A stretch of DNA of 64,000 bases from a virus (IMGVR_UViG_3300032294_003343:105184-169183), one strand, 5' to 3'; shown: positions 29,245-62,795, counted from the stretch's first letter. Translations and numbers: made by a program. Notes: generated from the sequence alone by a model not told the origin.

Positions 29245-30099
29245 TTAGCTTACGGTAATTCTTGAAACTGCATAGTCATTGATGAGAGCAAAACCGAGCT
29301 CTTCGTAAACAACCCATCCGAGTCTAAGTCTCTTTGGATCGTCTGCTGGGAGGACAGTGATGTCTTGGCGAACTGGCATTGCACCAACAAATTGAGCAGG
29401 TGCGAGAACGTAAACACTGTTCTTAGGAACCATTGTGGAAACGTGGATGTCAGCGGAATAGATGTGTCCGTAGAGACCAGTCATAAGGATGTCTCTTTGA
29501 GTTGCCTCATCGAAGAATTCCTTACCCCAGTTTCTGATATCCTTGTATCTTTGTGGGTGAAGAACAACCTTAGCACCGATCAACTCGTGCTCTTCAATGA
29601 GGGTCAACGCAAGGTTGACATTCTCAGGTTGGAGAGTACCAGAGACGGAAATTGCTTGGTCAGTTGGAACACCAGCGTTGATGACCTTGAAGACTTCTGT
29701 ATCTTCTTGTCTTTGGAGGGAGTCCTTAGCACGGACTTGAGCTCTATCGACAATGTAGAATCTTCTTTGGCGAATTTCGTTCAAGCGGATTTGTGGGTGT
29801 GCAGCTAATTCAACTGTAGGAACGAGAAGCTCTTCAGCCTCAACCTCAGCTGTTGGAACAGCACCACGCTTAGGAATGACGTATGACTTGACAGCAACGT
29901 CTCTCTCATAGCGAGCAAGAGCACCTTGTGGGAGCTCATCAACCATCAAAAGCTTGCGACCGATGGCTTGGTACATGAGGGAAGTCTTGATTGGCTCAAC
30001 CATTGCTTGTGCAAGAGCTGTGCGTCCCTCTGGAGTCTCGAGAGCCATTGCAATAATGGATTCTCTTTGCTCATTTGTGTTTCTCTTAATCATTGACAT
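29245..30099 (-). CDS. major capsid protein (HK97 fold, compact)
   Basis: 284 aa downstream of protease, scaffold and decoration genes; strong SD (AAGGAG); visibly higher GC with C-ending codons; strong terminator; IGRKLLMVDELPQG...GWVVYEELGF pattern. Confidence 0.8.
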   Translation of the reverse strand: MSMIKRNTNEQRESIIAMALETPEGRTALAQAMVEPIKTSLMYQAIGRKLLMVDELPQGALARYERDVAVKSYVIPKRGAVPTAEVEAEELLVPTVELAAHPQIRLNEIRQRRFYIVDRAQVRAKDSLQRQEDTEVFKVINAGVPTDQAISVSGTLQPENVNLALTLIEEHELIGAKVVLHPQRYKDIRNWGKEFFDEATQRDILMTGLYGHIYSADIHVSTMVPKNSVYVLAPAQFVGAMPVRQDITVLPADDPKRLRLGWVVYEELGFALINDYAVSRITVS

Positions 30100-30815: not shown

Positions 30816-32483
30816 TTAGTCCTCGATTATTGGCATTGTCCAGGTACCCTTAAGAGCACCTTGGATGTCAAGAGCTGCACTATTGTTGGATAAACCACCA
30901 CTTAATGCAGGAGATGTAGATACGCCTAATGTTGAAGCGGTTCTAGTACTCATTCTTTCAGCTGCAGCAGCTGCAACTCTTTCGGTTGAAGACTGTGCGG
31001 ACTTAAGTAAGAGTTTGGTTTGTCTGATCATTGAGTCAGACTTAAGACCATCATTGATCATTTGCTCTGCATATGAATCAACTTCATCGGAAGTAATAAT
31101 TCCAGCTAAAGCTAATTTTGTTGCACAGCTGTAAGAAGTTTTAATTCTTGCTACATCAACGGAAGATTTCTTGAGTTCATTAACAGTTTGGTATGCACTA
31201 TCCAATTCTACTTGAGTGTCGTTAATCTTCTTTTGAGTATTGACGTGTTGTCTTGTGTCAACATTTTGTGCTTCAACTTCTTTGTCTTTGGACTCAGCGT
31301 TTGTTGGGCAATCCTTGTTAGCACATCTAGTGTTTGGATCTTCCATAGCTGCCTCAGACATTCTCATTGATGTACCACATGAAGTACATTCAACGTCATG
31401 CTCTGCGGAAGCACCAACTGTTCTAGTGGTCTTGTGTGGCATAGAAGGCATTTGAGTTGGGATGCTAGGTTGATCAGCATCTTCAAGTCCTTCAGATGGG
31501 GTTTCTAAATGATCCCAATCTACAGTGTATTCTAATGAACCATCACCTGAACCGTCAAATTTACCTGGCTTTGTGACTGATGGAAATTGTAATGAATCAG
31601 GGTTCATGGTAGGAACTCTTTGATCGGCCCAAGTTGGGTTTTGTTCCTTAAGTGAATTTCCCTCACTACCTTCCATAGTCATAGAAGGATATTCAATTTC
31701 ACCCTTCATATCAACCATATCTTCGTTATACTTAAATGAGGCTGACGCTGGATAAGTCTCTTCTTCTGAAGCAATCTTCATGAGAATTTCTTCTCTTTCG
31801 GCTCTTCTTAAGAGAGCTTCTCTCTGTGCTTTGCGCTCAGCCAATGCTTGTTTAGTCATTGATCTAACCTCGTTGCTGTTTTTCATAAATTGTGTTTCAT
31901 TGTCTTCGTCATCATCTGACTCATCTTCTGAATCCATATCATCTTCATCATCATTAAAATGGGTGATATCTTCATCATCATCTTCGTCAGAATCATCATC
32001 TCCGCCAAGAAGATTATCTAGCGCCTCTTGCACAGCTTTTTGTGCTTGGTCAACCATATCAGCGGGAACTTCAATTTCAAAAGTGGCGACATCATCACTA
32101 TCTTCTACTTCGTCTTCGTCTTCCATATCTTCATCAGACATGTCATCGTCATCTACATCTTCTGAATCTTCATCACTCATAAAGTGATGAAATTCAACAT
32201 CGTCTTCATCATCTTCAGATTCATCGTTTGCGAAGTCAACAGTCTCTTTGCCATGATCAAGGTCTAAATTTGAAACATCAAGACCAGCTTGTCTAGCAAT
32301 GTTAGGGAGATACTTTGCTCTGATTGCTTTTGCGACAACAACAGCTTCATTGGCATCCAAAGACGCTGTCTTTTCCATGTCGGAAGCGCAGTTCATAAGA
32401 TCTTCCTTATCAGTTGCATTGATTTCAGCTAATCTCATTGCTGCAAATCTTTCCTGATTGGCTTTATTCGAATTTTTATTCAT
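30816..32483 (-). CDS. putative capsid scaffold/core protein
   Basis: very long D/E-rich tracts, coiled coils, CxxC...C..C; lies between protease and MCP; start moved to MNKNS with SD AGGGA. Confidence 0.6.
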   Translation of the reverse strand: MNKNSNKANQERFAAMRLAEINATDKEDLMNCASDMEKTASLDANEAVVVAKAIRAKYLPNIARQAGLDVSNLDLDHGKETVDFANDESEDDEDDVEFHHFMSDEDSEDVDDDDMSDEDMEDEDEVEDSDDVATFEIEVPADMVDQAQKAVQEALDNLLGGDDDSDEDDDEDITHFNDDEDDMDSEDESDDDEDNETQFMKNSNEVRSMTKQALAERKAQREALLRRAEREEILMKIASEEETYPASASFKYNEDMVDMKGEIEYPSMTMEGSEGNSLKEQNPTWADQRVPTMNPDSLQFPSVTKPGKFDGSGDGSLEYTVDWDHLETPSEGLEDADQPSIPTQMPSMPHKTTRTVGASAEHDVECTSCGTSMRMSEAAMEDPNTRCANKDCPTNAESKDKEVEAQNVDTRQHVNTQKKINDTQVELDSAYQTVNELKKSSVDVARIKTSYSCATKLALAGIITSDEVDSYAEQMINDGLKSDSMIRQTKLLLKSAQSSTERVAAAAAERMSTRTASTLGVSTSPALSGGLSNNSAALDIQGALKGTWTMPIIED

Positions 32484-32637: not shown

Positions 32638-35600
32638 TTAATCTATCCAAGTAATGGATACATCGAGTTTTGATGGATCTTTCTTGGAAGCTTGTACAGT
32701 TGTTCTTGAATAATTTCCACACTTGTAGCAGAATGTATTATTCTTGACTTTATGTGCTTCTCTATCTCCACATGAAGGGCAAACCATACCCACTGGAAGC
32801 ATTGATTCTGCTGTTCTGTCAAAAGACGGTAATGCAGTCTTCAAGTAGATATCTGAATCAACTGTAGCTGATAATCTGACCATTGTTTTGATAGTGTCTG
32901 CAACAGGTCCCATACCAGGTGCAGCTGGGTTAGCAGCTGGCATTTCTGTTGGTGCAGTTGCAGCACCTAATCCAGTATCAGGTCCAAGACCAAGTGGTTC
33001 TTCTTCTGGTGAAGATTTGCCCTTATCACCCATTGAAATTAATTCAAGGGATTGCATAATCTTGTAAGTAGTGCCACAGCTTTGACAATCTGCATTTGAT
33101 TCAGAGATGTTTACATCGTCGGAACCACAAACTGGACAAACTGAACCCCATGGTTTCTTTTCACCTGGTTCTGAAATTGCATCCATATCACCAGATTCAT
33201 TCATATCAGATCCACCAGTAAGTGAAGAAATACCTAAATCACCACCAGCAGGTGCACCACCACCCAAACCTGGATCAACTGGACCAGCTGCAGGGCCTTG
33301 AGGAGCTTGAGCACCACCAGCAGGAGCTCCCATGCCTGGTGCAATTTGTGCATATTTAGCTAAAATATTGTCTCTTCTGGCTTTTCTAGCTAATCTAGCA
33401 CCTTCAGTCATTATTACTGGCATTTCCATGCTATCTTCAGCATTCATTTCGGCATCTACATCATCAGTCTTGAATGTTTTTGAAGATGCAGTAGAAACAG
33501 TTGCAGTAACATCGCCGTTTTCAGATACAATCAAGTCTGTGAATGAGAATGTACCTGGATCAACTTGGAATCCATGACCTTGAAGAACTTCAATTGCTTT
33601 TTGCTTGAATGATTCATCAAAATTGCTATCACTTGGTTGTACGCCATCTAAATCTTCAGCTCTGCACATAAATCTAATGCAGTCAGATTTGCTTTGAGTA
33701 ACTGTCATACCAGCTGTTCTTTCAGAAGCTAAAACAGCCTTGGCTACTAACTTTTCTGCAACTTCGAATTCTTCACAAAGTCTCTTTGCAGCTTTAGCAA
33801 TTCTTCTTGTGCTGATACCAAAGTTTGTTGAATAATCTGCCAACCAACCAATGACATTTTCAGAAATATTCTTTGTGGATGCAGTTTTTACACCCCAGAA
33901 TTCTCTTCTTGCTCTAGCTCTCAATCTGCCATCAGTTGCAGTAGCTGTCTTTGCTCTATCAATAGCTGCCATCAATTGTTTTTCTGGCATTGCTTCAACA
34001 GAATCAACAACTTCATCAGGAGTTGTTCCAGTTTCTTTTGATGACATTGCCATTGCAGAAATTGCAGACTTAAGGTCTTCCTTTGAAATTAGATCAGCAT
34101 CAGCATCTACAGCTGACATGAGTGCAGACTTAAGTTCTTCTGATTTTGAAGGGGTTGTATCAACATCTAAACCTTCTGTAGGAACATTTGCTTGACCCAT
34201 GAGAAGCTCTGCAATTCTTGAAACGCCTTCTTTAGTCATTTCACCTTCTTCAACTGCAACTGAAAGAGCATCAGCAAGATCCATAGCAGTAATCTCAGAA
34301 GTAACAGCAGCACCTAATTGCTTAATAACAGCAGAAACTGAATTTTCTGGTTCAGCACTACCACCAAAGAATTCTGCTTTTTCTGCTTTGTCTGCTTCCA
34401 TGTCTGTTCCAGCAGCAGCAGTGCCAATCATTTCAGGAAGCATTGGTTCTTCAGCTAAAGTTTGTGCAACACGAATGATAGTTTTAGGTGTTTCAAGTGA
34501 AGAAATTACAGCCTTGCCTAACGCAGTGATTGTGGCTGTCATAATTTCAGTAGCACTTGCAGAACCTTCAGCACGATGGTTTGATAATTGCTTTTCTAAA
34601 ACTTCAGTTGGGACACCATGAGTAACTTCATCAACAAGTTGTGTTAAGGATTTACGGACTTCGTCATCTTTTACTCTTCTTCCATAAAGACCAGCATCTC
34701 CAAGAAGAATTTCTGTTACAGCGTCTTGGCTTGCACCAGTTTGCTTTGATTGTAATTGTTTTTCTTTGACTTCATTCACAAAACCAGTATTTTTGGACTT
34801 AATGCCATCGACTAAATTATCATACGATTCACCGCTTCTAACTTCGTCAAGCTGTCTTTCTCTATCGTCAAGTCTTTCTTTGACATCAAGCAAAGCAGTC
34901 TTGACAAATTGTGAATAATCCTTGAGCAATTCAGCAGCAACTCTTGTCCCTTGTCCATTTTCCATCAAACCAAGTTGATTTTCATTTAGGATAGGTTCCC
35001 AAGCAGTTCTTTTTCCATTTGTGTAACCTGTGATTGAACCATCAGTAGAAAGAACAACTCTATTACCTGCATTGTCCTCGACTTTAAAATCGATTGTAAC
35101 TGCAGCAGCAAGTTTTTTTCTTTGCTCTGATGCAATCTTTGCAAAGTGATCCATTTGATTTCTGCTCCCCGCCACGAAAGGCGTATTTGTTTTTATATTT
35201 TTGCTTCTTTCATTAGCAATTCTAATGACATTATCAATACTTTTTTGAGTTTGAGCATCATTATTTAAATTAAGTTTCAAACTTAAAATACTTTTTGTCA
35301 AATTCAAAATTTTATTGGAAGATGAACCGTTTTGAGCGCTAGCAAAAACTTCTCTTTTACCATCTCTTGAAGCCCATACCAAATTGTGAATGCTAGAGGC
35401 TAATGCAACACCGCCTCCAACTTGGGTACCTTGATCTCCAGAATAAGTAAGGTCCATTACTTTTCCTACAGATTCAGTTGGTGCATAATTTGCCAGACCA
35501 ATATTGGCATTCATAGGAGAAGCTTGTGCAGCTTGTCCTTGTTGCATACTTTGAGGTTGATTGATTTGTTGAGGTCTTTGGCCAGAACCAACGTCAATTC

Positions 35601-36789
35601 CATCATCAATCATGTCCTGCATAGTTGATTGAAGTTCAGCCATAGATTTGGTTACTTTACCTACATGACCTAAATCAACATTATCTTTTCTAGCAAACAT
35701 ATTCATCACTGCAACTTCCAAGAAGTTTAATGATAAGTTGATTAAATCTAGGATGTTCAACCCAGCAGCAGGATCAATTCCTAAAGCCGTCAAAACTGCT
35801 TGAACAGTTGAATTTTGATTAGCCCCAGCCCCAGCCAATAAAGGGCCACCTACAAGAGTTCCAGCTTGTTGAGCAAGTCTTATTGCAGTTTTAGCTGTAG
35901 AATTAGCTACTCTTAAACAATTCTCGTATTCTGATCTTGCAGAAGATTCTTGTGGAGATCCTTGTAATGCTAGTACGATATTTGCAGAAAGCTCATTTGC
36001 TTTCTTTTCCAAATTCATTGCTGCATCTAAAACATCATCAACATCATAAATTTCTTGAATTTCACAAGATTCAAAAGCACCATCACCAACGCAGCTTAAC
36101 TCAATAAACTTAACGCCATAGTTCTTTTCGTATGCTTTTTTGCCAGATTCAGGATAAATTTTGCCTTTATACTTCTTGAGGTGATCACAATAATCTCTCT
36201 CTGTGTATGCTTTATTGCCACAAATTGAACAAACACCCCATTCAACACTAGCACCCATTGAAACATCGTGAATTACACCAGTACGTATGTTTCTTGCAAT
36301 ATCAGGATAAGCTTCTTCATCTACAAAGAAAGTACAGTAAACACAATCTTCTTCTTCATCCCATTCAGCATAAACAACCATTCCTTTGGCTTGTTCAATA
36401 TCATCATTCTTATGGTTTGTGTAAATTGGCACACCTTCGAATGTTTTATATGATGGGATTTTCTTGCCCTTAATCTCAACTTCTTTGAGTAATTCTTCTT
36501 TAGAAAACAAGTCACCATTAGCATTTACAACATCTGCGTCGATTGCTCTGGCTCTAACCCATAAAAGCTTTGCACCTTTACGAGCTTGCATTTCCTTAAC
36601 AATGTCGAAATCTTTGTATTTTTCTAGGACTTCTTTTGGATCAGCGTAGAGAGATTGAAGACCAATTTTTGCAGCTTCTCTCATATTAGATGAAGCAGTC
36701 TTAATAATATAATCTCTAGCTATATTTCGGTCATTTTCGTTGAGAAAACTATTAATTGTAATAGCTCCTCCTTTTGCAACCTTGTACAT
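32638..36789 (-). CDS. giant prohead (maturation) protease fused to long scaffold/core-like and Zn-ribbon regions
   Basis: N-terminal NANGD...YTNH...VSMG-CSICG..CDH...FIELSCVGDGA HK97-type protease with Zn insert; C-terminal CPVC..CQSC and CPSC..CYKC; start MYKVA with SD GAGGA. Confidence 0.75.
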   Translation of the reverse strand: MYKVAKGGAITINSFLNENDRNIARDYIIKTASSNMREAAKIGLQSLYADPKEVLEKYKDFDIVKEMQARKGAKLLWVRARAIDADVVNANGDLFSKEELLKEVEIKGKKIPSYKTFEGVPIYTNHKNDDIEQAKGMVVYAEWDEEEDCVYCTFFVDEEAYPDIARNIRTGVIHDVSMGASVEWGVCSICGNKAYTERDYCDHLKKYKGKIYPESGKKAYEKNYGVKFIELSCVGDGAFESCEIQEIYDVDDVLDAAMNLEKKANELSANIVLALQGSPQESSARSEYENCLRVANSTAKTAIRLAQQAGTLVGGPLLAGAGANQNSTVQAVLTALGIDPAAGLNILDLINLSLNFLEVAVMNMFARKDNVDLGHVGKVTKSMAELQSTMQDMIDDGIDVGSGQRPQQINQPQSMQQGQAAQASPMNANIGLANYAPTESVGKVMDLTYSGDQGTQVGGGVALASSIHNLVWASRDGKREVFASAQNGSSSNKILNLTKSILSLKLNLNNDAQTQKSIDNVIRIANERSKNIKTNTPFVAGSRNQMDHFAKIASEQRKKLAAAVTIDFKVEDNAGNRVVLSTDGSITGYTNGKRTAWEPILNENQLGLMENGQGTRVAAELLKDYSQFVKTALLDVKERLDDRERQLDEVRSGESYDNLVDGIKSKNTGFVNEVKEKQLQSKQTGASQDAVTEILLGDAGLYGRRVKDDEVRKSLTQLVDEVTHGVPTEVLEKQLSNHRAEGSASATEIMTATITALGKAVISSLETPKTIIRVAQTLAEEPMLPEMIGTAAAGTDMEADKAEKAEFFGGSAEPENSVSAVIKQLGAAVTSEITAMDLADALSVAVEEGEMTKEGVSRIAELLMGQANVPTEGLDVDTTPSKSEELKSALMSAVDADADLISKEDLKSAISAMAMSSKETGTTPDEVVDSVEAMPEKQLMAAIDRAKTATATDGRLRARARREFWGVKTASTKNISENVIGWLADYSTNFGISTRRIAKAAKRLCEEFEVAEKLVAKAVLASERTAGMTVTQSKSDCIRFMCRAEDLDGVQPSDSNFDESFKQKAIEVLQGHGFQVDPGTFSFTDLIVSENGDVTATVSTASSKTFKTDDVDAEMNAEDSMEMPVIMTEGARLARKARRDNILAKYAQIAPGMGAPAGGAQAPQGPAAGPVDPGLGGGAPAGGDLGISSLTGGSDMNESGDMDAISEPGEKKPWGSVCPVCGSDDVNISESNADCQSCGTTYKIMQSLELISMGDKGKSSPEEEPLGLGPDTGLGAATAPTEMPAANPAAPGMGPVADTIKTMVRLSATVDSDIYLKTALPSFDRTAESMLPVGMVCPSCGDREAHKVKNNTFCYKCGNYSRTTVQASKKDPSKLDVSITWID

Positions 36790-36914: not shown

Positions 36915-39287
36915 TTACAAATATTCCGAATTACCCTCACCCATACCTGTTCGTTTTTTGATTGCTTTGATCAAAACATTTAGACAATCTTGAGGATGAT
37001 CATTGATTTCTTTGTCTGTAAATCTAACAATAATCCATCCATTTGCAGCTAATTCTGAATCTCTTCGTTTATCTTTTGCAATTTTATCTGGATTGTTATG
37101 CCAAATTTCTCCATCTGCTTCAATACCAATTTTAAGATTTGGAATTGCAGCATCTAATTGATAATCCATTGTAGGCCCAGCAGAATATTGAGCATAAAGA
37201 GGAAATGGCATATTTAATGACATTGTTAAACCATATAGTTTCTTCTCTAAACTAGTAAACATTTTTGGTTGTTGGGAAACATCTATTTTCTTTTTAGCAT
37301 ATCTTTTGATAGATTCATTCTCATTTGATGCAAATTGATATATCTCTTCCAAAGCATAATTATTCAATGGATGAGAATTATCTCCTCCACAGAGAGGGGT
37401 TTGCAATGATCCAAACAAACCATCATATTCACTTGGGAGTGGCCCAAGAGATCCTCTTCCTGTTACTGGGGTCAAAGACATCAAGAAGCCTTCATGAGCA
37501 GCAGACTTTATTCTTTTACTTGCAGTTCTGACACCTGAATTTTTAGCATTAATTCTTTCATCATAAATTTCGTTTATTAAATTACTAGCTAATTTGTAAT
37601 TTTTTGTCATAACTGAAGCTGTTGGAGCTGGTGCACCACCGGGTGCAGGAGCTGCAGGAGGAGCTCCAACAGGAGGCGGAGGAGCCCCACCAACTGCTAA
37701 ATCTGCTGGGGGAGGAGCTCCCATACCACCAGATGCATCTGGTGCTCCAGCACCAAATCCCTGCCCTGTCACTCCTCCACTTTGAAAACTCAATGAAATA
37801 TTGGGAGTTCCAAATGATTGATCATTGACAAAGTTTGCTCCCTGTTCAAATCTCAATCTTTCAATTTCTTGATCAGAATCTAATCCAAATGCTTCAATGA
37901 GAGAAACATTTGAAATCACACCGTTTTGGTTTGCAGTTACAAGCATTTGAAGCTTGCCAGTATCATCACGTAATTGAAGATCATCAAATTTGATTTTAGG
38001 ATAAACTAATTCATCCTGACCTCTTTCGCCTTCAATTACAAAACCATTCCATTTTGCAACTGGCATGAAAACATTTTGTTCAATCCAGTGTGCAACTTCT
38101 CTTCTAAAAGTCTCTAATCTTTGAGCCATTGCAAGAAGACCAACTTGAGCATTACCATAAGTTGGACCCTCGCCATTCAATAGAGCTTTATTGAGCATGA
38201 CACCATCTAAAATTTCTTGTTCAATTAATTCAAATTCACCAGTAAGAGGATGAATTTTGCCCGTAGCTCCGTACCATTCAAGATCAAAATTATGGTGAGT
38301 TACAAGAGTTAAGTTTGGATCATTAGCAATAGAAGCTAACTCATCTTGAACATTGTCAATATCTTCTTGTGATGCTGGTCTTGTATCACTACCAATTTTT
38401 ACAACCTTAATAGGCAAAATAAGACGTTCAGCAATCATATATTGAGCTTGACGTAATTTATCCTTGTAAGTCAAGATTGGAAACAACGGTCTGATCATGG
38501 AAATTCCATAATCTTCCCAAGGGTTTGAGCCATACTTAAAATGATGAATAGAAATAGGATTAAGCTTGATAGGATTTCCTTGCATAATCATCTTTTTTAT
38601 ATCATCAGGAATTTTGTCATAGACTTCCTTAGGATGTCTTTCATTTACAATTCTAATTTCTTCTGCAGATGGTCTGTAAGCATAACTACCTGGTTGATCA
38701 ATCATGCCTGGACTTTTAATTACAGAGTCTGGATTTAAAATCGAAATTGATTTCCAGGTAGCTCCATCATGTTCACACTCTTTATTTTTGTCATCATCCC
38801 AATTTGAACCGTGGCAGTGAGGACAATCAAGAGAAAGCAAAACAAATGAATCACCTAACAAGTGATATGTTTTGGAAATTTCAGGAAGCCATTTTTGAAA
38901 ATTGAGAGATTCTACTAACTTTTCAAAATAGTCTTTCACGTAAGAAGAAGAACATTCTAGCTTCCAGCCAGAAAATGGATAGTTGGTGTAAAAATTGACA
39001 GCTGCAGCAATTTTTGGTTCGTTATTTCTCCACCAGTTAGCCCAAAGATAAACTTCACGACGAGCATTTGGGATTTGAAAAGATGATGGAGTTAAAAAAG
39101 GCGAATAGAAATTTGGAGATGTAGTTACTGTGTTTACACTAGCAGTTCTTGTAACACTGGGTCCTAAACCTAGACCAATTCTACTGCTTGCATAATTTCT
39201 ATCTACAGTTGATGAAGTTGTGGGTGCTCCTGATACTTGTGTTGCTGCTGTTCTGATAGCAGAAGCCAATGATGTTCTATTTGCCAT
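36915..39287 (-). CDS. portal protein with C-terminal DUF559/Vsr-like PD-(D/E)XK nuclease domain
   Basis: portal-like core (LLGDSFV, IHHFKYGSNPWEDYGISMI, PKIKFDDLQLRD), Pro/Ala/Gly linker, then LDAAIP...IEADGEIWH...DKRRD...GWIIVRF. Confidence 0.75.
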   Translation of the reverse strand: MANRTSLASAIRTAATQVSGAPTTSSTVDRNYASSRIGLGLGPSVTRTASVNTVTTSPNFYSPFLTPSSFQIPNARREVYLWANWWRNNEPKIAAAVNFYTNYPFSGWKLECSSSYVKDYFEKLVESLNFQKWLPEISKTYHLLGDSFVLLSLDCPHCHGSNWDDDKNKECEHDGATWKSISILNPDSVIKSPGMIDQPGSYAYRPSAEEIRIVNERHPKEVYDKIPDDIKKMIMQGNPIKLNPISIHHFKYGSNPWEDYGISMIRPLFPILTYKDKLRQAQYMIAERLILPIKVVKIGSDTRPASQEDIDNVQDELASIANDPNLTLVTHHNFDLEWYGATGKIHPLTGEFELIEQEILDGVMLNKALLNGEGPTYGNAQVGLLAMAQRLETFRREVAHWIEQNVFMPVAKWNGFVIEGERGQDELVYPKIKFDDLQLRDDTGKLQMLVTANQNGVISNVSLIEAFGLDSDQEIERLRFEQGANFVNDQSFGTPNISLSFQSGGVTGQGFGAGAPDASGGMGAPPPADLAVGGAPPPPVGAPPAAPAPGGAPAPTASVMTKNYKLASNLINEIYDERINAKNSGVRTASKRIKSAAHEGFLMSLTPVTGRGSLGPLPSEYDGLFGSLQTPLCGGDNSHPLNNYALEEIYQFASNENESIKRYAKKKIDVSQQPKMFTSLEKKLYGLTMSLNMPFPLYAQYSAGPTMDYQLDAAIPNLKIGIEADGEIWHNNPDKIAKDKRRDSELAANGWIIVRFTDKEINDHPQDCLNVLIKAIKKRTGMGEGNSEYL

Positions 39288-39320
39288 AACATATATTATA
39301 CCGTTCTATAAATTGAGAAC

Positions 39321-39854
39321 TTAGTACCAAGTTTGATTGGAAGGTTTGTTTCCGAAAAGAATAGGATCTTGTTTGCCTTTAAGTGCTTGATAGTATCCTT
39401 CACCATTCTTAAAATGTTGAAAACTATTACCTCTTTCTGTTGAAGCCATACTTTGAGGATCTCTATTGTTATTTTGTTGTCTAGATCCTTCTAATTGATC
39501 TTCAATAGTAGTATTTTCTGGCGCTTCATGATAAGGTGAATGTCTACGAGCTTCATTTGCTGCTGATTGTGGAGACTTGATAAAGTTTCCAGTATTATCC
39601 ATAGTCATTCTATGAGGTCTTTCAACAAGTAAATCCCAAATTTCTTTTTGTTGCACTTGATTCATACTGTAATATTCATCAAGAGTTTTGCCCATTTTTT
39701 CAAGAATGCCTGATAATTCGTCATATAATCCAGCAGGTTGATTATCTACATCTCTAATCTTATCAATCTCAGAAGGATTTTTAGTGTCAAATTTCTCTAT
39801 TCCCTCTAAATTGACTCCACCACCAATTTGAGATAAAACTTGCTTATACCACAT
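39321..39854 (-). CDS. hypothetical head/core protein with MWY leader
   Basis: ATG at 39854 (MWYKQVLSQ) overlaps the upstream stop; contains TIEDQLEGSR repeat. Confidence 0.6.
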   Translation of the reverse strand: MWYKQVLSQIGGGVNLEGIEKFDTKNPSEIDKIRDVDNQPAGLYDELSGILEKMGKTLDEYYSMNQVQQKEIWDLLVERPHRMTMDNTGNFIKSPQSAANEARRHSPYHEAPENTTIEDQLEGSRQQNNNRDPQSMASTERGNSFQHFKNGEGYYQALKGKQDPILFGNKPSNQTWY

Positions 39855-54350: not shown

Positions 54351-54419
54351 AAAAGAATATTACCAAGCTACCCATTCAAAATCAAGGGCTTATGGGGATA
54401 AATGTAAAATAAAGTAAAT

Positions 54420-57134
54420 ATGTGGTACTCAAGAATTATCGAATCAGCAACTGCCTGGGATGTCCTTTCAACTAAAGAAGTTGTTTGGAGTGGCTCTTTT
54501 TCTAGAACATTTAAAGATTTTTCATTTTATAGCTCAACTAATATGCCTACTATGACTGCTATGCTTAAATTCTTAGCTGAAATAGAAAAAGGTAAAAATA
54601 ACGATTCTATACTTGATAAATATTTTGAAAAAGCTAAAGATGATCGAGTTGCAATGGCTGACATAATGAGTTTTGCTAGTGGATTATCAAAATTTATCGA
54701 TACTGAAATGAAAAAGCAAGGTAGTTCTGCCAATACAGATATGATGAAAGTTCTTGATTTTTTGGGGAAATTAAATAGTTTCGCAAAATCTCAAGGTCAA
54801 AAAGGCAACAAATTAGGAGACGAAATTCCTGATGCTGAAAAAGCAAAAGCATATGTCAATTCTACTTTAGGTATAGGATTTACAACACTCAATTTATTAG
54901 TTAGAAAAGGTACCGAAATAAGTGATTCTCTAGCCCTTTTTATGATGCGTGGTGATGACAAAGCATTATTGGGAATACCTGATTCTGAACAAAGAAATTT
55001 ATTGATAGAACAATTGAAACAACAGAAGCCTGAATTGGAAAAGTTTGAAAGCTACGAAGCTGTTATAGAAACAATTTGGAGTGGTGAAATAAAGAATTAT
55101 CTGCCCCTATTGAAAAGTTTTCTTTTTTCAGGAATTGATCCACCTCAGATTTTACATATGATCATTCAAATATTGAATCAATCTGATATAGAACAAAAAG
55201 ATGTTGTTAATATGGTTATGGGATTACCTACAGAGTCTTTAGTTGACACACTTACTAACTTAGAACAATATTCCCAGTATGATGAATTCACATCTCCTTT
55301 AGCTCAAAGATTATATAACGTAATTGGTGAATATGAACTTAACTCAAATCCTGTACTTATTGGAAAACTTAAAAGATGCAAAACATTTACTAACTATGTA
55401 CATTCATTAGGTGATAATTGTCAACCTATGTATATCATAAAAGGAATTGCAAAGCCTGAAGTGATCATTAGGTATTTGGAAAAAAACCCTGAAGATTTTG
55501 AAAAATTTGATGTCAATCTTTTAAGTAGTTTGGGCGATGAGATTAAAAAGCAAATTATTGCTCGTGGAACTGCAGCAAAAGCAAGAATACAGTCTGATGG
55601 TTTAGCTTTGTTGGAAAAAGCTGCACAACAAAATATAATTAAAATTTCAAAAGCATCAGAAACTTCTTTCAATTATGCATATGGAAAAGGTCCTAAAAAT
55701 CAACCAACTCAAGAAGGTATGTCTGATAGTGAATTGAGACAAAAAGGCAAATCAGACGAAATTTTTGGAAAGATTTATCAATCTTATGAAGATCGTATGA
55801 AGCAAGAGGCTCCTTTTGCTGGTGTCAGTGAAGAAGACATTGAAACATATGCCGATCAGATGGTCATCATAGAATTTAGCACTTATAGCTTGCAAAGTTT
55901 TTTAAGAGAAAACAATGCGCCAAAGATGAAAATTGGTCCTGTAGATATGCTTGATGAAAAATGGGGCGGATTGTTTGTACCAAGATTTCCAACAAAAGAT
56001 AGAGGTCCAATACCAGCTATATTGATCAAAACAGATATATGGAATCAACTTGCTTATCATCAAGCATTAGCAGAAAATATTGGCATGAATGCTGAACATT
56101 ATGTTGAAGCAACTAGAAGACACGAAGTTGCTCACGCATTGCAATATCTACAATCTGGTGATTTGACAATGCAAGATTCAATTGCATTAAATCCTGAATT
56201 GACACCAGAGGAAGCATACATTTCAAATCCATCAGAGCTATATGCAAGAATTCACGGAGACATTCCTTATCTTTCTAAAATATTTGATGCACATATTGGC
56301 AACTTAATGTCTGACAGAAAAATCTATGAAGCTGCGAAAGAACAATGGATTTTAGATATTCAAGATGAAATGGTTCACTTAATGTCAGGTGGAACTAATG
56401 CTACAAGATTGCTTGCAGATATGGAAGCTGGAAGATTTGGAACTTTCACTACTGATTCTGGTCAAACTATAAAATTACCAGACCCACTTGAAGCAATTAA
56501 TAAAAAATTACAGCGCCAAAGAAACAAACTTGAGATGATTTTCCACGAAACATTTCAAATTCAAGGCAGAAGAGATTTTAGAAGAGGCTTGATTAGTAAG
56601 AAAAATCAATTAGCTCAACAAATACAATCTACCCCTATTTATTCCCCAGAAAGAACACATCTTGAACAAGAACTAAAAGATGTAGAAACCCAATTGGTAG
56701 AATCTGGAAAAATGTTAATCTTTGATGTCAAAGATGTATCTGAAGCTGTAGTTGAAGGATATATGTCTGACTATTATTCAAAGGTTGCAGAAGCTGTAGC
56801 TAATGGATTACTTACTACAGACATTGTGAATCCAGAGGGTGCAGATAGAAGATTGGAAAATGAGCAATTGAGAGAAGAAGCTAAAAAGCAAGAACCTCCA
56901 ACAGCCCAAGATATTAGACAGCATTCAAGATTCCAAATTCAACAAACAGAACCAATCCCAAGTGGTAGAAAAATTGATGTTATTATTCCTAGATATAAAG
57001 GACCAGGAAGACCATCAGGTAATTTCCCAGGATTTGATGATGCTGAACAAGACGAACAACAAGTTGATCTGTCAATAGAGCAGAATGAAAATAAGACAGC
57101 TAAAGTTTATAATTTCAGAAAAAGTTTAGGTTAA
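54420..57134 (+). CDS. large protein with MWY leader and zincin (HExxH) metallopeptidase-like domain
   Basis: MWYSRII; RHEVAHALQ...YISNPSELYAR. Confidence 0.65.
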   Translation: MWYSRIIESATAWDVLSTKEVVWSGSFSRTFKDFSFYSSTNMPTMTAMLKFLAEIEKGKNNDSILDKYFEKAKDDRVAMADIMSFASGLSKFIDTEMKKQGSSANTDMMKVLDFLGKLNSFAKSQGQKGNKLGDEIPDAEKAKAYVNSTLGIGFTTLNLLVRKGTEISDSLALFMMRGDDKALLGIPDSEQRNLLIEQLKQQKPELEKFESYEAVIETIWSGEIKNYLPLLKSFLFSGIDPPQILHMIIQILNQSDIEQKDVVNMVMGLPTESLVDTLTNLEQYSQYDEFTSPLAQRLYNVIGEYELNSNPVLIGKLKRCKTFTNYVHSLGDNCQPMYIIKGIAKPEVIIRYLEKNPEDFEKFDVNLLSSLGDEIKKQIIARGTAAKARIQSDGLALLEKAAQQNIIKISKASETSFNYAYGKGPKNQPTQEGMSDSELRQKGKSDEIFGKIYQSYEDRMKQEAPFAGVSEEDIETYADQMVIIEFSTYSLQSFLRENNAPKMKIGPVDMLDEKWGGLFVPRFPTKDRGPIPAILIKTDIWNQLAYHQALAENIGMNAEHYVEATRRHEVAHALQYLQSGDLTMQDSIALNPELTPEEAYISNPSELYARIHGDIPYLSKIFDAHIGNLMSDRKIYEAAKEQWILDIQDEMVHLMSGGTNATRLLADMEAGRFGTFTTDSGQTIKLPDPLEAINKKLQRQRNKLEMIFHETFQIQGRRDFRRGLISKKNQLAQQIQSTPIYSPERTHLEQELKDVETQLVESGKMLIFDVKDVSEAVVEGYMSDYYSKVAEAVANGLLTTDIVNPEGADRRLENEQLREEAKKQEPPTAQDIRQHSRFQIQQTEPIPSGRKIDVIIPRYKGPGRPSGNFPGFDDAEQDEQQVDLSIEQNENKTAKVYNFRKSLG

Positions 57135-57752
57135 ATCTATATCTTTTTCTTCATCAAAAAATTCCCTGTCATCCACACCATTCATTTGAAAATCAATGTG
57201 GGCATCAGGGAATTTTTGTCTTAATCTACTTATTGCTTCGTCTTTGCTGTAATCTTCTAATGGTAAATTAGTGGTGAAAACAACCTCGTGGTGAATTTCT
57301 TCTGCATCTTCTTCATCACTATACAATTCTTCTAAGCCAGGAATAGACAATTGATCTGTAATTAGTTTACCCTCTTTATCAGACCCTGCTGATAATGCCT
57401 TAAATGACAAAGGATCCATAAAGAAAAATTTCCAAACACCATTTTCAGGAAATAATAAAATTTGCGGATAAAGCTCGAAATGTTTTCTTGTACCTTTATG
57501 TTTGTCAGCAATTTGTTCGACAGGATCCTTAGATGGATCAAAAATAAATTTATCATCACCTAAAACTTCAATAGGATCTCTACCTTCTTTTCTTGCTCTA
57601 ATTAATGCAAAATCAGAAAATGTTTCAGGATTCTTATATACTTGATCGAAATCTAAATCAGAAGCGTCAATTGCTACTTTGGTAAATTTATCAGCAAGCT
57701 TATAGCAGCCTAAATTATCCAAAATAGATGCTGTGCGAAGAAAGTTAAACAT
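57126..57752 (-). CDS. hypothetical acidic protein with LDxxGxYxxAD leader
   Basis: LRTASILDNLGCYKLADKFTKVA N-terminus. Confidence 0.6.
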   Translation of the reverse strand: MFNFLRTASILDNLGCYKLADKFTKVAIDASDLDFDQVYKNPETFSDFALIRARKEGRDPIEVLGDDKFIFDPSKDPVEQIADKHKGTRKHFELYPQILLFPENGVWKFFFMDPLSFKALSAGSDKEGKLITDQLSIPGLEELYSDEEDAEEIHHEVVFTTNLPLEDYSKDEAISRLRQKFPDAHIDFQMNGVDDREFFDEEKDIDLT

Positions 57753-57754
57753 AC

Positions 57755-58438
57755 TTACTTCTTTGGCATTTTGTGAGAGGCATCCTTTTTCTCATCATCT
57801 TTGAATTGAACATAAACTTCAGATGCTTTTTTTCTGATGCGAGTGAGTGCATTGTCAACACACTTGGCTGGAACATTCAAAGTATAGGAAATTTCTTTAT
57901 ATGATGAATTGTGTCCGTATTCTACAAATATGTCTGCTTCTAATGGGGTGAGTTTATCCATCAACATTTCAGAGTTTAATTCTAATTCTTCTCTGACAAT
58001 AAGATCTTCTACTAAATTTACTTCTGGAGATTCATCATAAGGATTTTTCTTATCAGGAATATAATCTCCTAAAGAATGAAAATTGCCATCATCATTTAAA
58101 ATAAAAGGAGCATCTAACGAAATAGAATCGTTCAACGCTGAATTCTTCATTCTTTTCGCAGATGCTATAGCTGTGGCAAGATGTCTTTTACAAACTAAAT
58201 TTACGCAAAAGTTCTTGAATGTTGTGTCTTTGGTGCAATCGTAGGAATTTACTGCTTTAAATACACCTAATCTCAATTCTTGCATTACATCTTCTCTGTC
58301 TCCACCGACAATGAAAAAGTGAGGTGCAATTTTCTTGAGATCTGGTTCTACCATCTTAAGCAGCTTTTTAAAGGCTGCTTCATTACCTGCTTTTGCTCTA
58401 TTAACTATTCTTACTATTCTGAAATCTTCGGTTGCCAT
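57755..58438 (-). CDS. SigH/Spo0H-like RNA polymerase sigma factor
   Basis: FFIVGGDREDVMQE..GVFKAV..YD, TAI...KNSALNDSISLD, SYKEIS...KCVDNALTRIRKK; SD GGGAG. Confidence 0.85.
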   Translation of the reverse strand: MATEDFRIVRIVNRAKAGNEAAFKKLLKMVEPDLKKIAPHFFIVGGDREDVMQELRLGVFKAVNSYDCTKDTTFKNFCVNLVCKRHLATAIASAKRMKNSALNDSISLDAPFILNDDGNFHSLGDYIPDKKNPYDESPEVNLVEDLIVREELELNSEMLMDKLTPLEADIFVEYGHNSSYKEISYTLNVPAKCVDNALTRIRKKASEVYVQFKDDEKKDASHKMPKK

Positions 58439-58477
58439 CAAAACTCCCGAAGGCACAAATCATCACAAAACTTCTTT

Positions 58478-59539
58478 TTACGCCTTTTCCCTATTTGCGT
58501 ACTTTTCTATAATTTTGAGAACACCTGTAGTTGCAACAATGTCCTCGGAAACAGTTTGCCTTATGTCTTTTGAAATGTTATACAATTGTTCTGCGATATC
58601 TATAAGCAACAAAGTATCAACAGACTTGGCTATATTTTCTATATCTTCATCTCTTTCAACCTTTTTTGTTTTAATAACAACATATCTGAAGGCTGTAATG
58701 AAGATATTTGATGTTTCTGCTAATAAATTACCTAAATTTCTTCCCTCTGCGTTGGCTGATTGAATTAATCTAAACGCATTAGCAAAATCTTCGTTGATAA
58801 TTGTGTAAGAAAGATCAATTGCAAGCTGTTTTGGCGATCTATCAAGCAATTCTCTGATGTTTTCTTCAGATATATCTTTATAAGAAGCTTGCTCAAGAAT
58901 AGATAATGCAGTTCTAGCACTACCTTCAGCATCAGTGGCAATAAGATCTAATGCCTCTTCTTCAAAAACAAGATTTTCTTTCTCACAAACATCTGAAAGC
59001 AGTTCAACTAAATTTTGTTTAGTCAACTTTTTCATCATAAATGTCTGGCAACGAGTATGGATGGCACGAAGAATCTTATGAGGATCTGTTGTGCAAAAGA
59101 AAAACTTTACATATGCTGGTGGTTCTTCAGTAAGCTTGATAAGAGATGTTTGTGCTTGAGTGGTAAGCATTTGAGCTTCATCAAGAATAAAAATCTTGTA
59201 TTTACCTAATGTTGGAGCAAGACGAGATAATTGAACTACATTTTCTCGGATGTGATCAACGCCATTATTTACAGCACAATTGATTTCATAAACATCTGGA
59301 TGTTCATCATTCAAGACCATATCTTTCAAATCGTCTTGATCATCATTGCAAAGAAGATGTGCTGAAGCAACACGAGCAAGAGTTGTCTTACCAGTACCAG
59401 GAGGGCCAGAAAAAATATAGGCGTGAGTAGTCCTGGTATTCTTAATTTGAATTTCAAGAATTTCTGCTGATTTACTGCCCTTTATATCTTTGAATGTTTT
59501 GGGGCGATATTTATTATAATAGCTTTGACTAATCATCAT
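58478..59539 (-). CDS. dnaX: DNA polymerase III gamma/tau clamp-loader ATPase
   Basis: KYRPKTF, GPPGTGKTT, DEAQML, LTEEPP, TRCQ; Zn-finger Cys cluster absent. Confidence 0.88.
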   Translation of the reverse strand: MMISQSYYNKYRPKTFKDIKGSKSAEILEIQIKNTRTTHAYIFSGPPGTGKTTLARVASAHLLCNDDQDDLKDMVLNDEHPDVYEINCAVNNGVDHIRENVVQLSRLAPTLGKYKIFILDEAQMLTTQAQTSLIKLTEEPPAYVKFFFCTTDPHKILRAIHTRCQTFMMKKLTKQNLVELLSDVCEKENLVFEEEALDLIATDAEGSARTALSILEQASYKDISEENIRELLDRSPKQLAIDLSYTIINEDFANAFRLIQSANAEGRNLGNLLAETSNIFITAFRYVVIKTKKVERDEDIENIAKSVDTLLLIDIAEQLYNISKDIRQTVSEDIVATTGVLKIIEKYANREKA

Positions 59540-60011
59540 CTTCCATCGGTAATATAAGAGGTAAGGCGTGAGTACCTTCTAAAAGAGAGGGCAAACCTTC
59601 CTTCGACATCCAATAAGGACCAAATCCAGTTCTAACAAAATATTCTGTAATAAAGCCATAATCTTGAACGTCGAATGTACGAATTTTACCATCCAATGAA
59701 GGACTTATCGAATACAAGCAACGGAAAATAATCCATTCCTTTTTAGACTGTTCTAATTCTTCCCATAAGTCAGACCACACACCAAGGCAGTAAACTTTTC
59801 CATTACCAAGAGATTGTAAAATTCCCCTAGCCCAAGATTGAGTTAGCCCCGACATAATATATGGCGGGGCATTCTTTCCTTTATATCCATCCATCTCTAC
59901 AAAATGAACTAGATCCAAATTTACATATCCTAAAAATGGATAATATTTAGAAACAAGCTTTTCTGCAATTTCTTGGCACTCAATGGATTCTATAAATTCT
60001 GGATCACTCAT
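59529..60011 (-). CDS. phage metallopeptidase-like protein, apparently degenerate
   Basis: family pattern (IAEKLV...W..L....K..IIF..L..I...IRTFDVQDY...G..W) with RCLYS where HExxH is expected. Confidence 0.5.
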   Translation of the reverse strand: MSDPEFIESIECQEIAEKLVSKYYPFLGYVNLDLVHFVEMDGYKGKNAPPYIMSGLTQSWARGILQSLGNGKVYCLGVWSDLWEELEQSKKEWIIFRCLYSISPSLDGKIRTFDVQDYGFITEYFVRTGFGPYWMSKEGLPSLLEGTHALPLILPMEDDD

Positions 60012-60343
60012 AATGATAATTGTGTCACTGCAACAACTTGACCATTCTCATCACGAATTGCTGTTGGGCCTGTATCTACACTGAATACATCTTCACGATC
60101 AAATGGAATGAATTCCATCGAAACTCGACTAACGATGTAATAAACACCATCCTCAGGATCAGGAAGATTTACAATTTTTTCAAAATGAGTTTCAGCAACA
60201 GGAACGCTTGCAACTTTACCAATAATTCTTTGTTTAGTTTGAACAAAGCAAGGATTTTCTGCTCTTGGTAAAGTTCCATATCCTGAAATTGTAATATCGT
60301 GCCCAATCAAGTTCACAAATTTCTTAAATTCTGGATACATCAT
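60008..60343 (-). CDS. conserved viral hypothetical protein
   Basis: VNLIGHDI...NLPDPEDGVYYIVSR...DTGP..RDENG. Confidence 0.6.
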   Translation of the reverse strand: MMYPEFKKFVNLIGHDITISGYGTLPRAENPCFVQTKQRIIGKVASVPVAETHFEKIVNLPDPEDGVYYIVSRVSMEFIPFDREDVFSVDTGPTAIRDENGQVVAVTQLSL

Positions 60344-60717
60344 AAATTGATACCTGCAATACCCTCATTACGCTTTGGCTGATACAAGAAACCTGATTGG
60401 TCTCCATTGGCTCTCAAGTCATTAATAAGAACTCTAGACCCACCACCAATACCCATTACCAATTGATCGTAAACAATTCCAGCATAAGAAAGCTGCTTGA
60501 CTGTTACATCACGCAAACTTTCTTTTCTGCCAGTAGTGAGAATAATCTTAAAACCTTTGCTATCCCATTCACGAATCTTATCTACAGTTCCGTGAATAAT
60601 TTTTGGTTGATATCCAGGCTTCGCAATTTCAGTGGGATCACCTTGCTCCCAAAGTGTTCCGTCTAAATCACAAAAAATAGTGTAATTCTTTGTGGCTTGA
60701 TCAATATTGTGTTCCAT
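60340..60717 (-). CDS. HAD-superfamily phosphatase
   Basis: FCDLDGT, LTTGR, LIND. Confidence 0.8.
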   Translation of the reverse strand: MEHNIDQATKNYTIFCDLDGTLWEQGDPTEIAKPGYQPKIIHGTVDKIREWDSKGFKIILTTGRKESLRDVTVKQLSYAGIVYDQLVMGIGGGSRVLINDLRANGDQSGFLYQPKRNEGIAGINL

Positions 60718-61229
60718 TACTTACCTGTACTGCCCAATCCACCTTTACGGGATGTCTTATCAGTCTTTCCAAATTCTTCAACTTCGACAAGTTCGTGATC
60801 AGCTAACTTTGCCACAACCATTTGAGCAATTCGATCACCGTGCTTGATTGAAAATGGAATCTTGTTGTGATTGATAAGAATTACCTTAAGTTCAAAATCT
60901 TCACCATCACCACAATAATCACTGTCAATAGTGCCTGGAGTATTGAGAACAGTAACACCAAACTTAGCAGCCAAGCCAGATCTAGGACGAATTTGAATTT
61001 CGTAACCATTTGGAATATTTACATTAAGACCAGTAGGAACAATCAAAGTTGAATGTGGTGCAACAAGAGTTTGTTCATCATAAGAATCTTTTAACCAAGC
61101 ACAAATATCATAACCTGCTGCACTTTCAGTGGCTTTCTTAGGAATAACTGCATCCTCACGAAAAGCCTTGATCTCAACTGTTGCTTTAGGACCTGATACT
61201 GAAACCTGTCCACTACCTGATGCTGCCAT
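60717..61229 (-). CDS. dut: dUTP diphosphatase (trimeric)
   Basis: AGYDI, RPRSGLA, GTIDSDY, RIAQ, RKGGLGSTG. Confidence 0.95.
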   Translation of the reverse strand: MAASGSGQVSVSGPKATVEIKAFREDAVIPKKATESAAGYDICAWLKDSYDEQTLVAPHSTLIVPTGLNVNIPNGYEIQIRPRSGLAAKFGVTVLNTPGTIDSDYCGDGEDFELKVILINHNKIPFSIKHGDRIAQMVVAKLADHELVEVEEFGKTDKTSRKGGLGSTGK

Positions 61230-61230
61230 A

Positions 61231-61548
61231 TTAAATACCTTCCTCATTCTTAATCATATCTGCAGTAATTTCTTCGGCTTCTGGATTGAATATAAGAGAC
61301 AATGGATGTTCACGATTTTTAAGAGCAATCGTAAAATTGATCAATTCTCTACCTTCTAAATATCGATCCATCTTTGTCAAATCTTTAATATCTTCCAGTG
61401 ATAACACAGCAGTATACACTCTTTCAGACTTTACATCTTGAAGTTGAAGCCAAATAAATTGAACAATTGTAGGCTCGTCCTCAGTGCCTTCATCTTCCTT
61501 CAATACTGCATCTAAAATCTTAACTTCTCTAACTACTGATTTTGCCAT
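61231..61548 (-). CDS. hypothetical protein
   Basis: 105-aa ORF at the head of the replication operon; TATAAT 6 nt before ATG. Confidence 0.6.
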   Translation of the reverse strand: MAKSVVREVKILDAVLKEDEGTEDEPTIVQFIWLQLQDVKSERVYTAVLSLEDIKDLTKMDRYLEGRELINFTIALKNREHPLSLIFNPEAEEITADMIKNEEGI

Positions 61549-61585
61549 ACAAGGATTATATCTTATAAATAGTAAAATGTAAATT

Positions 61586-62431
61586 ATGTGGTACCGATTA
61601 GCTCAACTAGGTTCTTTTTTGCCTTCATTTATTTCAGATCCAACCGTTAGTAATTTAGCATCTGGAGAGAATAATTTTATTGCTATAGAAGATAAGATAA
61701 ATAAACTTATAAGGCAATTGAAACCAGAAGACCAATTAGAGTTTAAAAATAGATTATATGAATTAAGACAACAAAATTCATCTCAAAGCTCATTCTCTTC
61801 TCAAGACAGAATGGAGAATTGGAATAATCTTATTAATGATGTAAGTAATCAAGTATTTAAACAAAAAATCAATATCACAAATAATATTAAGTCTATTGTT
61901 GATAAAAGAACTGTAGGCCGTTATGAAGACGGTGAATTCAAGGATGCTGATAAATTATTTAAGGAATATCTAAATGCCCAAGGTAATTTAAATATTTTTT
62001 CAAATATTAAGTCAAGCTCAGATGTTTATGAGATTACAAGCTTTTTCATTAATAATGCTACAGATCCAAAATTTGATATTGTAAAAAAAATTATCAAAAA
62101 ATTTCCTACAAAAATTTTGAACTATACAGAAGTTTTTGATTTACTTTTAAACTTTTATTTAGAATATAAGTTAAGAGAAGTCAAGTCTGCACTTGAAAGA
62201 AAACAACCCTTATCTACAGATGATAAATTAGCAATTGATTTTATAAATTCCAAGATTATTTTGCATTCTGGAAAAATAGGTATCAATCTTTTCAATATTA
62301 CTAATAAAGATATTTTTGGAGCACTTTTAGGTTCTATTTCATCTACAGCTTTAGAAGGCGTTGAAGGATTACAAAATCAAATGAATGTCAACCAAAGTAT
62401 ACAACAATTGATAAACAATACAAGGCAATAA
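61586..62431 (+). CDS. hypothetical protein with MWYRLAQ leader
   Basis: 281-aa ORF. Confidence 0.6.
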   Translation: MWYRLAQLGSFLPSFISDPTVSNLASGENNFIAIEDKINKLIRQLKPEDQLEFKNRLYELRQQNSSQSSFSSQDRMENWNNLINDVSNQVFKQKINITNNIKSIVDKRTVGRYEDGEFKDADKLFKEYLNAQGNLNIFSNIKSSSDVYEITSFFINNATDPKFDIVKKIIKKFPTKILNYTEVFDLLLNFYLEYKLREVKSALERKQPLSTDDKLAIDFINSKIILHSGKIGINLFNITNKDIFGALLGSISSTALEGVEGLQNQMNVNQSIQQLINNTRQ

Positions 62432-62432
62432 T

Positions 62433-62795
62433 ATGTGGTATCGATTGGCTCAAGATCAAAATGATATTCAAAAATTAATTAACTTCTTTATGAATAAATA
62501 TCCTGAAGTTATCTTAAGAATTACAGAATTTGAAAACAAAATCAAGTTAGATAAAATATTCATTCCCAAAGAGATGAGAGGTATGGGTATAGGAACAGAA
62601 ATTATTACTGCTATTAAGGAATATAGCCAAAGAGCAAACAAACCTATTGTTCTTAATCCTGAACCTGAAAAAGGTAAAAAGGGTGCTCTTCAAAGATTTT
62701 ATGAGCGAAATGAATTTGTAGATAATGCTGGAAGAAGAAAAGATTACGATTTGACAGATACATTTTCTAGAACAATGTATTACAAACCAAAATAA
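62433..62795 (+). CDS. GNAT-family acetyltransferase with MWYRLAQ leader
   Basis: IFIPKEMRGMGIGT acetyl-CoA loop; LQRFYERNEF. Confidence 0.75.
   Translation: MWYRLAQDQNDIQKLINFFMNKYPEVILRITEFENKIKLDKIFIPKEMRGMGIGTEIITAIKEYSQRANKPIVLNPEPEKGKKGALQRFYERNEFVDNAGRRKDYDLTDTFSRTMYYKPK

Follow-up and report, generated by a model that had tools for sequence, protein, structure and literature searches.

In a 64,000-nucleotide stretch of DNA from a virus (IMGVR_UViG_3300032294_003343:105184-169183), several otherwise unrelated proteins start with the same short peptide, MWY-[RK]-hydrophobic-Ala-Gln. From its sequence, and by analogy with known phage systems, we predict this peptide to be, on balance, a capsid-targeting and cleavage tag for injected effectors. 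The stretch, hereafter the window, closes a viral contig of 169,183 bp and 33.6% G+C (G000), of which it makes up the final 64 kb, and coordinates are window positions unless marked as genome positions; G001, G007, G008, G009 and G010 denote related genomes and L-numbers denote database loci.

A portable N-terminal peptide under selection

Going by the composition of the encoded proteins (Trp 1.0% and Tyr 4.4% of residues), only 0.058 of the 129 crude gene calls in this genome would be expected to start with MWY, against the five that do (P about 5e-9), four of them inside the window. By open reading frame (ORF) calls, the + strand genes encode a 904-residue protein with the tag variant MWYSRIIES and a single HEVAH motif (54420..57134), a 281-residue protein of unassigned function starting MWYRLAQLG (61586..62431) and a 120-residue GNAT acetyltransferase, also detected with Pfam, starting MWYRLAQDQ (62433..62795). 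On the - strand are a 177-residue protein with MWYKQVLSQ followed by IGGG, encoded directly upstream of the portal gene (39321..39854), and, outside the window, a 166-residue protein starting MWYRLAKKY (genome 20980-21480). The three + strand genes, all with ATG-TGG-TAY starts, were correctly placed by the first-pass annotation, including the synonymous differences (TAC/TAT and TTA/TTG) between the tags of the 281-residue and GNAT genes. Its fourth example, at 39854, has 11 codons of the longest ORF (39321-39887, -) ahead of it and so is codon 12; however, we take this Met to be the real start, because its counterpart in G008 is the first ATG of the gene and 85 of 87 database homologues begin at the same Met with MWY[KR]..[AS]Q.GG. 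Those four proteins are part of a larger set, with the fifth gene of this genome and many more across the clade; even five is a lower bound, because the contig end falls inside a ribonucleotide reductase (RNR) gene.

The excess recurs in four related genomes, with MWY starts in 29 of 1016 crude gene calls against 0.6 expected. BLAST clustering, with the first ten residues removed, divides the 60 distinct MWY proteins gathered from all loci into 36 groups, which have only the first 6-7 residues in common, and the proposal of a portable tag on unrelated proteins thus comes out stronger than it was first put. The consensus is M-W-Y-[RK]-[LIFT]-A-Q, with variants that include MWY[SN]R[IT]I and MWYKQ[VI]L[AS]Q. 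At position 4 the residue is Lys, or Arg specified by five codons (AGA, CGA, CGT, AGG and CGG); at position 5, many codons specify Leu, Ile or Phe; and at position 6, three codons specify Ala. The pattern WY[RK]x[AS] is found almost solely at residue 2 and almost never internally. Within single families the tag is constant and the 20-30 residues that follow it are rich in indels. Since the codons vary while the tag is kept beside this indel-rich linker, selection acts on the peptide, and comparison of codons and families shows, at the level of sequence, a strictly N-terminal tag maintained as such.

Tagged proteins resemble domains of polyvalent proteins predicted to be injected

The tagged GNAT passes the Pfam Acetyltransf_7 cut-off narrowly (27.6 bits versus 27; E 3.9e-6), and three more GNAT models score slightly under their own cut-offs. 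It matches positions 2688-2794 of 3925 in phrog_10691, and its closest relatives in isolated phages are internal domains of giant polyvalent proteins (e.g., a 3867-residue PLxRFG protein of Klebsiella phage ZX1 and a 3292-residue protein of Vibrio phage 1.232.O). The MWY cargo of related phages comprises two ADP-ribosyltransferase (ART) families of the ART-PolyVal type (PF18760, E 8.5e-14 and 2e-11), an InPase (PF18823, E 1.8e-39), a NUDIX hydrolase, PcfJ-like proteins, a poly(A)-polymerase/CCA-type nucleotidyltransferase with an HD domain (PolyA_pol+HD) and a J-domain protein (L045:11818-12327). Each Pfam-annotated MWY protein displays one catalytic domain or, in the case of PolyA_pol+HD, one enzyme unit. 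ART, the same GNAT type and InPase all belong to the domains described from polyvalent proteins, which are predicted to be packaged and injected, often by means of a MuF or portal fusion (Iyer et al. 2017; PMC5512222). By domain assignment, then, the cargo is dominated by enzyme families of those phage and plasmid proteins that enter the host alongside DNA. At locus L028 an ART-related 522-residue protein, a 156-residue protein and a GNAT are encoded in succession, an arrangement that resembles a polyvalent protein split into separately tagged genes.

The first-pass annotation had named a GNAT and an HExxH peptidase as cargo; the GNAT is borne out, while the peptidase stands as a candidate. 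In the 904-residue protein the HExxH motif, a Tyr and a Glu are invariant across 33 representative homologues, and HExxH with the downstream Glu is likewise invariant in a set of 22. Its C-terminal core is modeled by AlphaFold2 (AF2) with a pLDDT of 79.6 and gives weak matches to YbeY (probability 0.80) and SprT-like folds (probability 0.57), with a Pfam SprT-like hit at E 0.054 in 3 of the 22 homologues. A tblastn search of 50,697 phage records with the 904-residue protein gave no match, nor did a PDB sequence search with the HExxH core, and a wide VIA-align search with this core was swamped by a generic helical hairpin. The motif and the weak fold matches make this protein a candidate zincin-like metallohydrolase. 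The 281-residue protein, most of whose 53 homologues begin MWY[RK]x[AS]Q, has a tag, an indel-rich disordered linker and a helical body; residues 1-29 (tag and linker) have a pLDDT under 50 in its AF2 model, as expected of disorder, and no Pfam, PHROG or PDB fold match was obtained for it.

The tag ends in a motif of head-assembly proteins

The - strand of the window carries the genes for a portal protein (36915..39287; phrog_16240, E 3e-33), a 1383-residue protease fusion with an N-terminal head maturation protease domain (32638..36789; phrog_18299, E 1e-20) and a 555-residue candidate scaffold (30816..32483), which we label so by its position between the protease and capsid genes since it has no family match. 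The protease domain is 39% identical to gp19 of Bacillus phage G (E 1e-37) and returned no Pfam or PDB sequence match. In its G009 orthologue (L053:233-1132), a Hint/intein-like insert apparently interrupts the domain just after a catalytic-looking HDVSMG.

The first-pass annotation had linked RLAQ to a putative protease site. The motif [KR]-[LIVTFM]-A-[QS] occurs genome-wide at 3.3 times the composition-based expectation and is concentrated in the protease fusion (5 versus 0.6 expected), the candidate scaffold (3 versus 0.18) and the portal (3 versus 0.21), and the same concentration in these three proteins is seen in G009. Sites of the protease fusion, which has five with RLAQ among them, and of the candidate scaffold are conserved in G009, and several motif sites keep their position between orthologues of just 31-41% identity (e.g., STRTAS near the scaffold C-terminus and [IT]R[LI]AQ.AGTLVGG in the protease fusion). 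Near the N-terminus, inside residues 1-20, the motif occurs in eight proteins of this genome against 1.8 expected. The end of the MWY tag, [KR]-hydrophobic-Ala-Gln, matches this motif of the head-assembly proteins. The Ala|Ser or Ala|Gln pattern is reminiscent of herpesvirus assemblin sites.

A second, helical N-terminal leader of about 35 residues (..[KR]xA..LD..G.Y..AD..) heads several unrelated proteins and closes about 20 residues later in [KR]-x-A-Q, the same as the tag end. One such protein, of 208 residues (MFNFLRTASILDNLGCYKLADKF...; 57126..57752, -), is encoded convergently with the 904-residue gene with an overlap of 9 nucleotides, and the leader pattern is found in further - strand genes at genome 16327-17079 and at window 45449-45907. 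Homologues of the 904-residue protein begin either with MWY or with the helical leader (the latter in P0141, P0145 and P0151), which argues that the two are equivalent modules.

The portal offers two further connections. In G000, G008 and G009 alike, the portal gene has an MWY gene as its immediate upstream neighbor, although the proteins concerned have diverged past BLAST recognition. The C-terminal residues 600-790 of the portal (36918-37490, -) match the Pfam REase_MTES_1575/DUF559 (Vsr-like) nuclease-type domain, so that the portal itself has an effector-like domain fused to it.

These same links could be accommodated if the tag did no more than dock internal head or scaffold-accessory proteins or serve as their maturation propeptide; the proteins would then act or be degraded in the head, with no delivery to the host. 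The portal-adjacent family and a 330-residue terminase-adjacent family (MSNNIRTAQFGG; MWYRFAQFGGG in L006) indeed look assembly-like, with Gly-rich linkers, and the end motif is common to the candidate scaffold and the protease fusion. However, the tag is the sole extra sequence on a 120-residue GNAT, a 124-residue NUDIX and a 150-residue InPase, enzymes without an obvious job in a DNA-filled head, and relatives of these small tagged enzymes are parts of proteins predicted to be injected. We accordingly regard a purely structural propeptide as improbable. We attach a similarly low probability to an address elsewhere, such as a host factor, a membrane or the replication compartment: both MWY units of the + strand lie among replication genes, but the tag has no signal-peptide or transmembrane character, and head-assembly proteins are the sole sequence link found.

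Tagged genes occupy an exchangeable slot and follow a shared upstream motif

The interval between 61231-61548 and the RNR gene is a cassette slot whose contents differ among relatives and include MWY genes every time: the 281-residue protein and the GNAT in G000, 521- and 155-residue proteins in G008, and 522- and 156-residue proteins together with a GNAT in L028. Both + strand units of the window are preceded by promoter-like motifs, ATAAATGTAAAAT at 54398..54410 (+), 10-22 nucleotides upstream of the 904-residue gene, and ATAAATAGTAAAAT at 61565..61578 (+), upstream of the 281-residue/GNAT unit and overlapping a TATAAATA. The form shared by the two, ATAAAT-N(0-1)-GTAAAAT, has just these two occurrences in the 169-kb genome, each ahead of an MWY unit. 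The capsid gene and several other structural genes are instead preceded by TAAAGG or GGTAAAG motifs; a loose GTAAA core is common to these upstream motifs and says nothing on the timing of expression. The first-pass annotation had seen a late-promoter-like motif before both units. A reading as T4 late promoters is rejected, as TATAAATA precedes only one of the two units, along with one tail-region gene, and the motif that the units do share is not that of the capsid gene. At many genes, the portal gene included (39288-39300), GTATAAT stands about 12 nucleotides before the ATG, ending about 6 nucleotides before it, which, with the absence of a Shine-Dalgarno sequence, suggests leaderless or near-leaderless mRNAs.

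This context raises the question of whether the peptide is a passenger of a nucleic-acid element, a near-leaderless start module AATT-ATG-TGG-TAY that would serve in translation initiation or as microhomology for cassette exchange. AATT directly precedes the ATG in 36% of the MWY genes (10/28) versus 4.7% of other genes, T is found at -1 in 75% versus 43%, a -10-like hexamer lies 11-18 nucleotides upstream with no Shine-Dalgarno sequence, and the cassettes are swapped at a fixed slot. Against this, codon changes at positions 4-7, synonymous or not, preserve the residue class; both Tyr codons are used, Trp having just one codon; and the peptide is kept within families over 36-100% identity. Moreover, such a module would have no need of Ala6 and Gln7. 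We therefore consider this explanation very improbable.

The tag marks one abundant clade of large phages

Scanning IMG/VR with two degenerate DNA patterns for MWYR[LF]A[QK] recovered 22 loci (11 per scan). Most of these lie at ORF starts; their contigs reach 441 kb and often have several tagged genes next to each other. Bacterial and archaeal genomes totaling 596 Gb yielded the tag pattern at or below chance, with 8 of 101 matches at ORF starts and no clue to the host. Each MWY contig checked encodes the same major capsid protein at 72-100% identity (88-99% in five other MWY contigs, 100% in G008 and 72% in G009). In this genome it is a 284-residue protein (29245..30099, -), recognized by the length and N-terminal sequence pattern that it has in common with phage G gp27. 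Its environmental homologues number more than 1000, and identity is 73-97% among the best 120 listed. The tag is thus a trait of one abundant uncultured clade of large phages. The capsid protein is near-invariant (72-100%) across genomes of 169-441 kb, and their portal, protease and scaffold fall to 31-41% identity. A DNA search of 50,697 phage records found no near relative of this genome. Among isolates, Bacillus phage G comes nearest (portal 29% and protease domain 39% identical); it displays no MWY enrichment. We found no published description of the tag; a literature search for MWYRLAQ, MWYRFAQ or MWY in a phage context returned nothing.

The clade also bears on the notion that the tag is an unfoldase or chaperone signal, either a ClpX-type N-terminal degron or a DnaK/J client signal, which would shorten the life of early effectors or govern how they fold and would play no part in packaging. 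W-Y-R-L has a hydrophobic-hydrophobic-basic-hydrophobic pattern. It reportedly resembles the N-motif 1 of ClpX described by Flynn and colleagues in 2003. The strictly N-terminal position would fit such a signal, and among the phage genes is one for a ClpX-like ATPase (AAA_2 and ClpB_D2-small domains; genome 17908-19260, -), near which are genes with Hsp70-like and two J-domain-like N-terminal sequences. A phage ClpX is present in G000, G001, G007 and G010, with MWY genes near it in G000, G007 and G010. However, the complete 441-kb G009 has MWY genes and no phage ClpX, and we reject the latter as an obligatory reader of the tag. A chaperone signal would also leave unexplained the portal-adjacent MWY family, the end motif common to the head proteins and the exchange with the helical leader, and we judge it unlikely.

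A proposed route from head assembly to the host

Returning to the capsid-targeting prediction, we propose that during head assembly the tag would dock its protein into the procapsid, with the near-invariant capsid protein, the scaffold and the long protease fusion as candidate receptors. The prohead protease, of HK97-lineage type and homologous to phage G gp19, would then cut at [KR]-x-Ala|Gln or beside it. Once released from the tag, the enzymes would leave the head together with the DNA and, as infection begins, modify the host or counter its defenses. The ejected set would potentially include the GNAT, the NUDIX, the ADP-ribosyltransferase, the pyrophosphatase-like InPase, the J protein, the tRNA nucleotidyltransferase-type enzyme and the zincin-like hydrolase. 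The tag would thereby serve single-domain proteins as a MuF or portal fusion serves polyvalent proteins, and because it would replace such a fusion, we propose that the cargo genes become swappable as cassettes.

Several considerations weigh against this proposal. Packaging, cleavage and ejection of the MWY proteins are all inferred, from sequence and from analogy. The motif before the MWY units differs from that before the capsid gene, so that late co-expression with the head genes is a conjecture. Some of the cargo (e.g., the CCA-adding-type enzyme or the J protein) would do its work just as well after early synthesis in the cytoplasm. The head proteins mostly have [KR]-T-A-S and the tag has [RK]-L/F-A-Q, which could be two separate signals. 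Finally, the frequency of AATT before the ATG (36% versus 5%) points to conservation that is partly at the nucleic-acid level. As an overall interpretation, the injection of effectors by means of a portable tag, already suggested by the first-pass annotation, is thus partly supported: portability, cargo, the head links and the cassette arrangement speak for it, and the late promoter has fallen away.

By function, the tag would be a variant of the capsid-targeting sequence (CTS) principle of T4 in an unrelated phage G-related lineage; by sequence, it stands outside the T4 family. The T4 CTS, found on IPI-III and Alt and removed by gp21, is likewise a short, strictly N-terminal peptide on otherwise unrelated proteins; its cargo also includes an ADP-ribosyltransferase and anti-defense-type proteins, the cargo loci are hypervariable, and the tag end motif recurs in head-core proteins. 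The internal-protein locus of T-even phages encodes diverse proteins with only the CTS in common (PMC3012670), and the slot beside the RNR gene, with its varying MWY genes, is comparable to it. Unlike the CTS, which is about 10 residues long, the MWY tag has 6-7 residues, and there is no sequence similarity between them (MKTYQEFIAE in T4 versus MWYRLAQ). The candidate cleavage site here is Ala|Gln or Ala|Ser, whereas T4 gp21 cuts after Glu in Leu/Ile-x-Glu; and the portal and protease place the phage lineage with Bacillus phage G and apart from T4.

With the polyvalent proteins (Iyer et al. 2017), the MWY system has in common ART-PolyVal, InPase, the ART-neighboring GNAT type and NUDIX, as well as a portal with a fused nuclease-like domain; in contrast to the 2-15 domains per polypeptide anchored there by MuF or portal, the tagged proteins here are separate single-domain genes. 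In the giant phages phiKZ and SPN3US, many head-associated proteins are described as being cut at one short motif by a single protease (PMC10052503, PMC7411985). The propeptides of these head and ejection proteins are long and family-specific, whereas the MWY tag is a portable heptapeptide, and the motif and protease lineage also differ.

A further parallel is found in Bacillus phage G, a cultivated distant relative. There (NC_023719, 4754-18253 and scattered), a leader M-[ST/K]-R-L-[KR]-K-[LIVT]-(A) occurs 12 times against 3.2 expected, on gp5, gp9, gp10, gp17, gp20 and several other head-region and other small proteins. Phage G gp10 (KSRLKKVSFDGGGG) is Gly-rich and encoded upstream of the portal, like the MWY-GGG protein of this phage. 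This leader is analogous to the MWY tag in that unrelated small proteins start alike, although its sequence differs; in the multi-omics paper on phage G we found nothing on it and no N-terminal processing data.

Encapsulins provide another comparison: for unrelated enzymes to be loaded into their HK97-fold shell, no more than a short terminal peptide is needed. These cargo-loading peptides are usually C-terminal and uncleaved. By this analogy one may conjecture that the MWY tag binds the capsid protein directly. In its fullest and rather doubtful form, the heptapeptide would be a plug-in loading signal read by the near-invariant capsid protein throughout the clade, from 169 to 441 kb, with the helical leader as its interchangeable counterpart. 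Any enzyme gaining seven codons could then become an injected effector, and one delivery problem would have been solved in two ways, by polyvalent proteins and by tagged single-domain proteins.

If the tag does load heads, no portable capsid-targeting signal known would be shorter. A very abundant group of large, uncultured phages would have this signal conserved among them, and it would connect the concepts of the T4 internal proteins and the polyvalent proteins. The injected effectors of these phages could then be read from sequence as any gene starting MWY[RK]xAQ, which would provide a simple rule to find new anti-defense enzymes in metagenomes. The 6-7-residue tag could also be used for loading foreign proteins into capsids.

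Genomic neighborhood of the tagged genes

As the first-pass annotation had it, the + strand MWY genes form two units in a - strand replication region, which also holds nucleotide-metabolism genes. These surroundings encode a beta clamp, the adenylosuccinate synthetase PurA, two sigma factors, a clamp loader, a phage metallopeptidase, a HAD phosphatase, a dUTPase and the RNR. The metallopeptidase, a 160-residue "putative phage metallopeptidase" (PF18894; 59529-60011, -), is untagged and is encoded among the replication genes.

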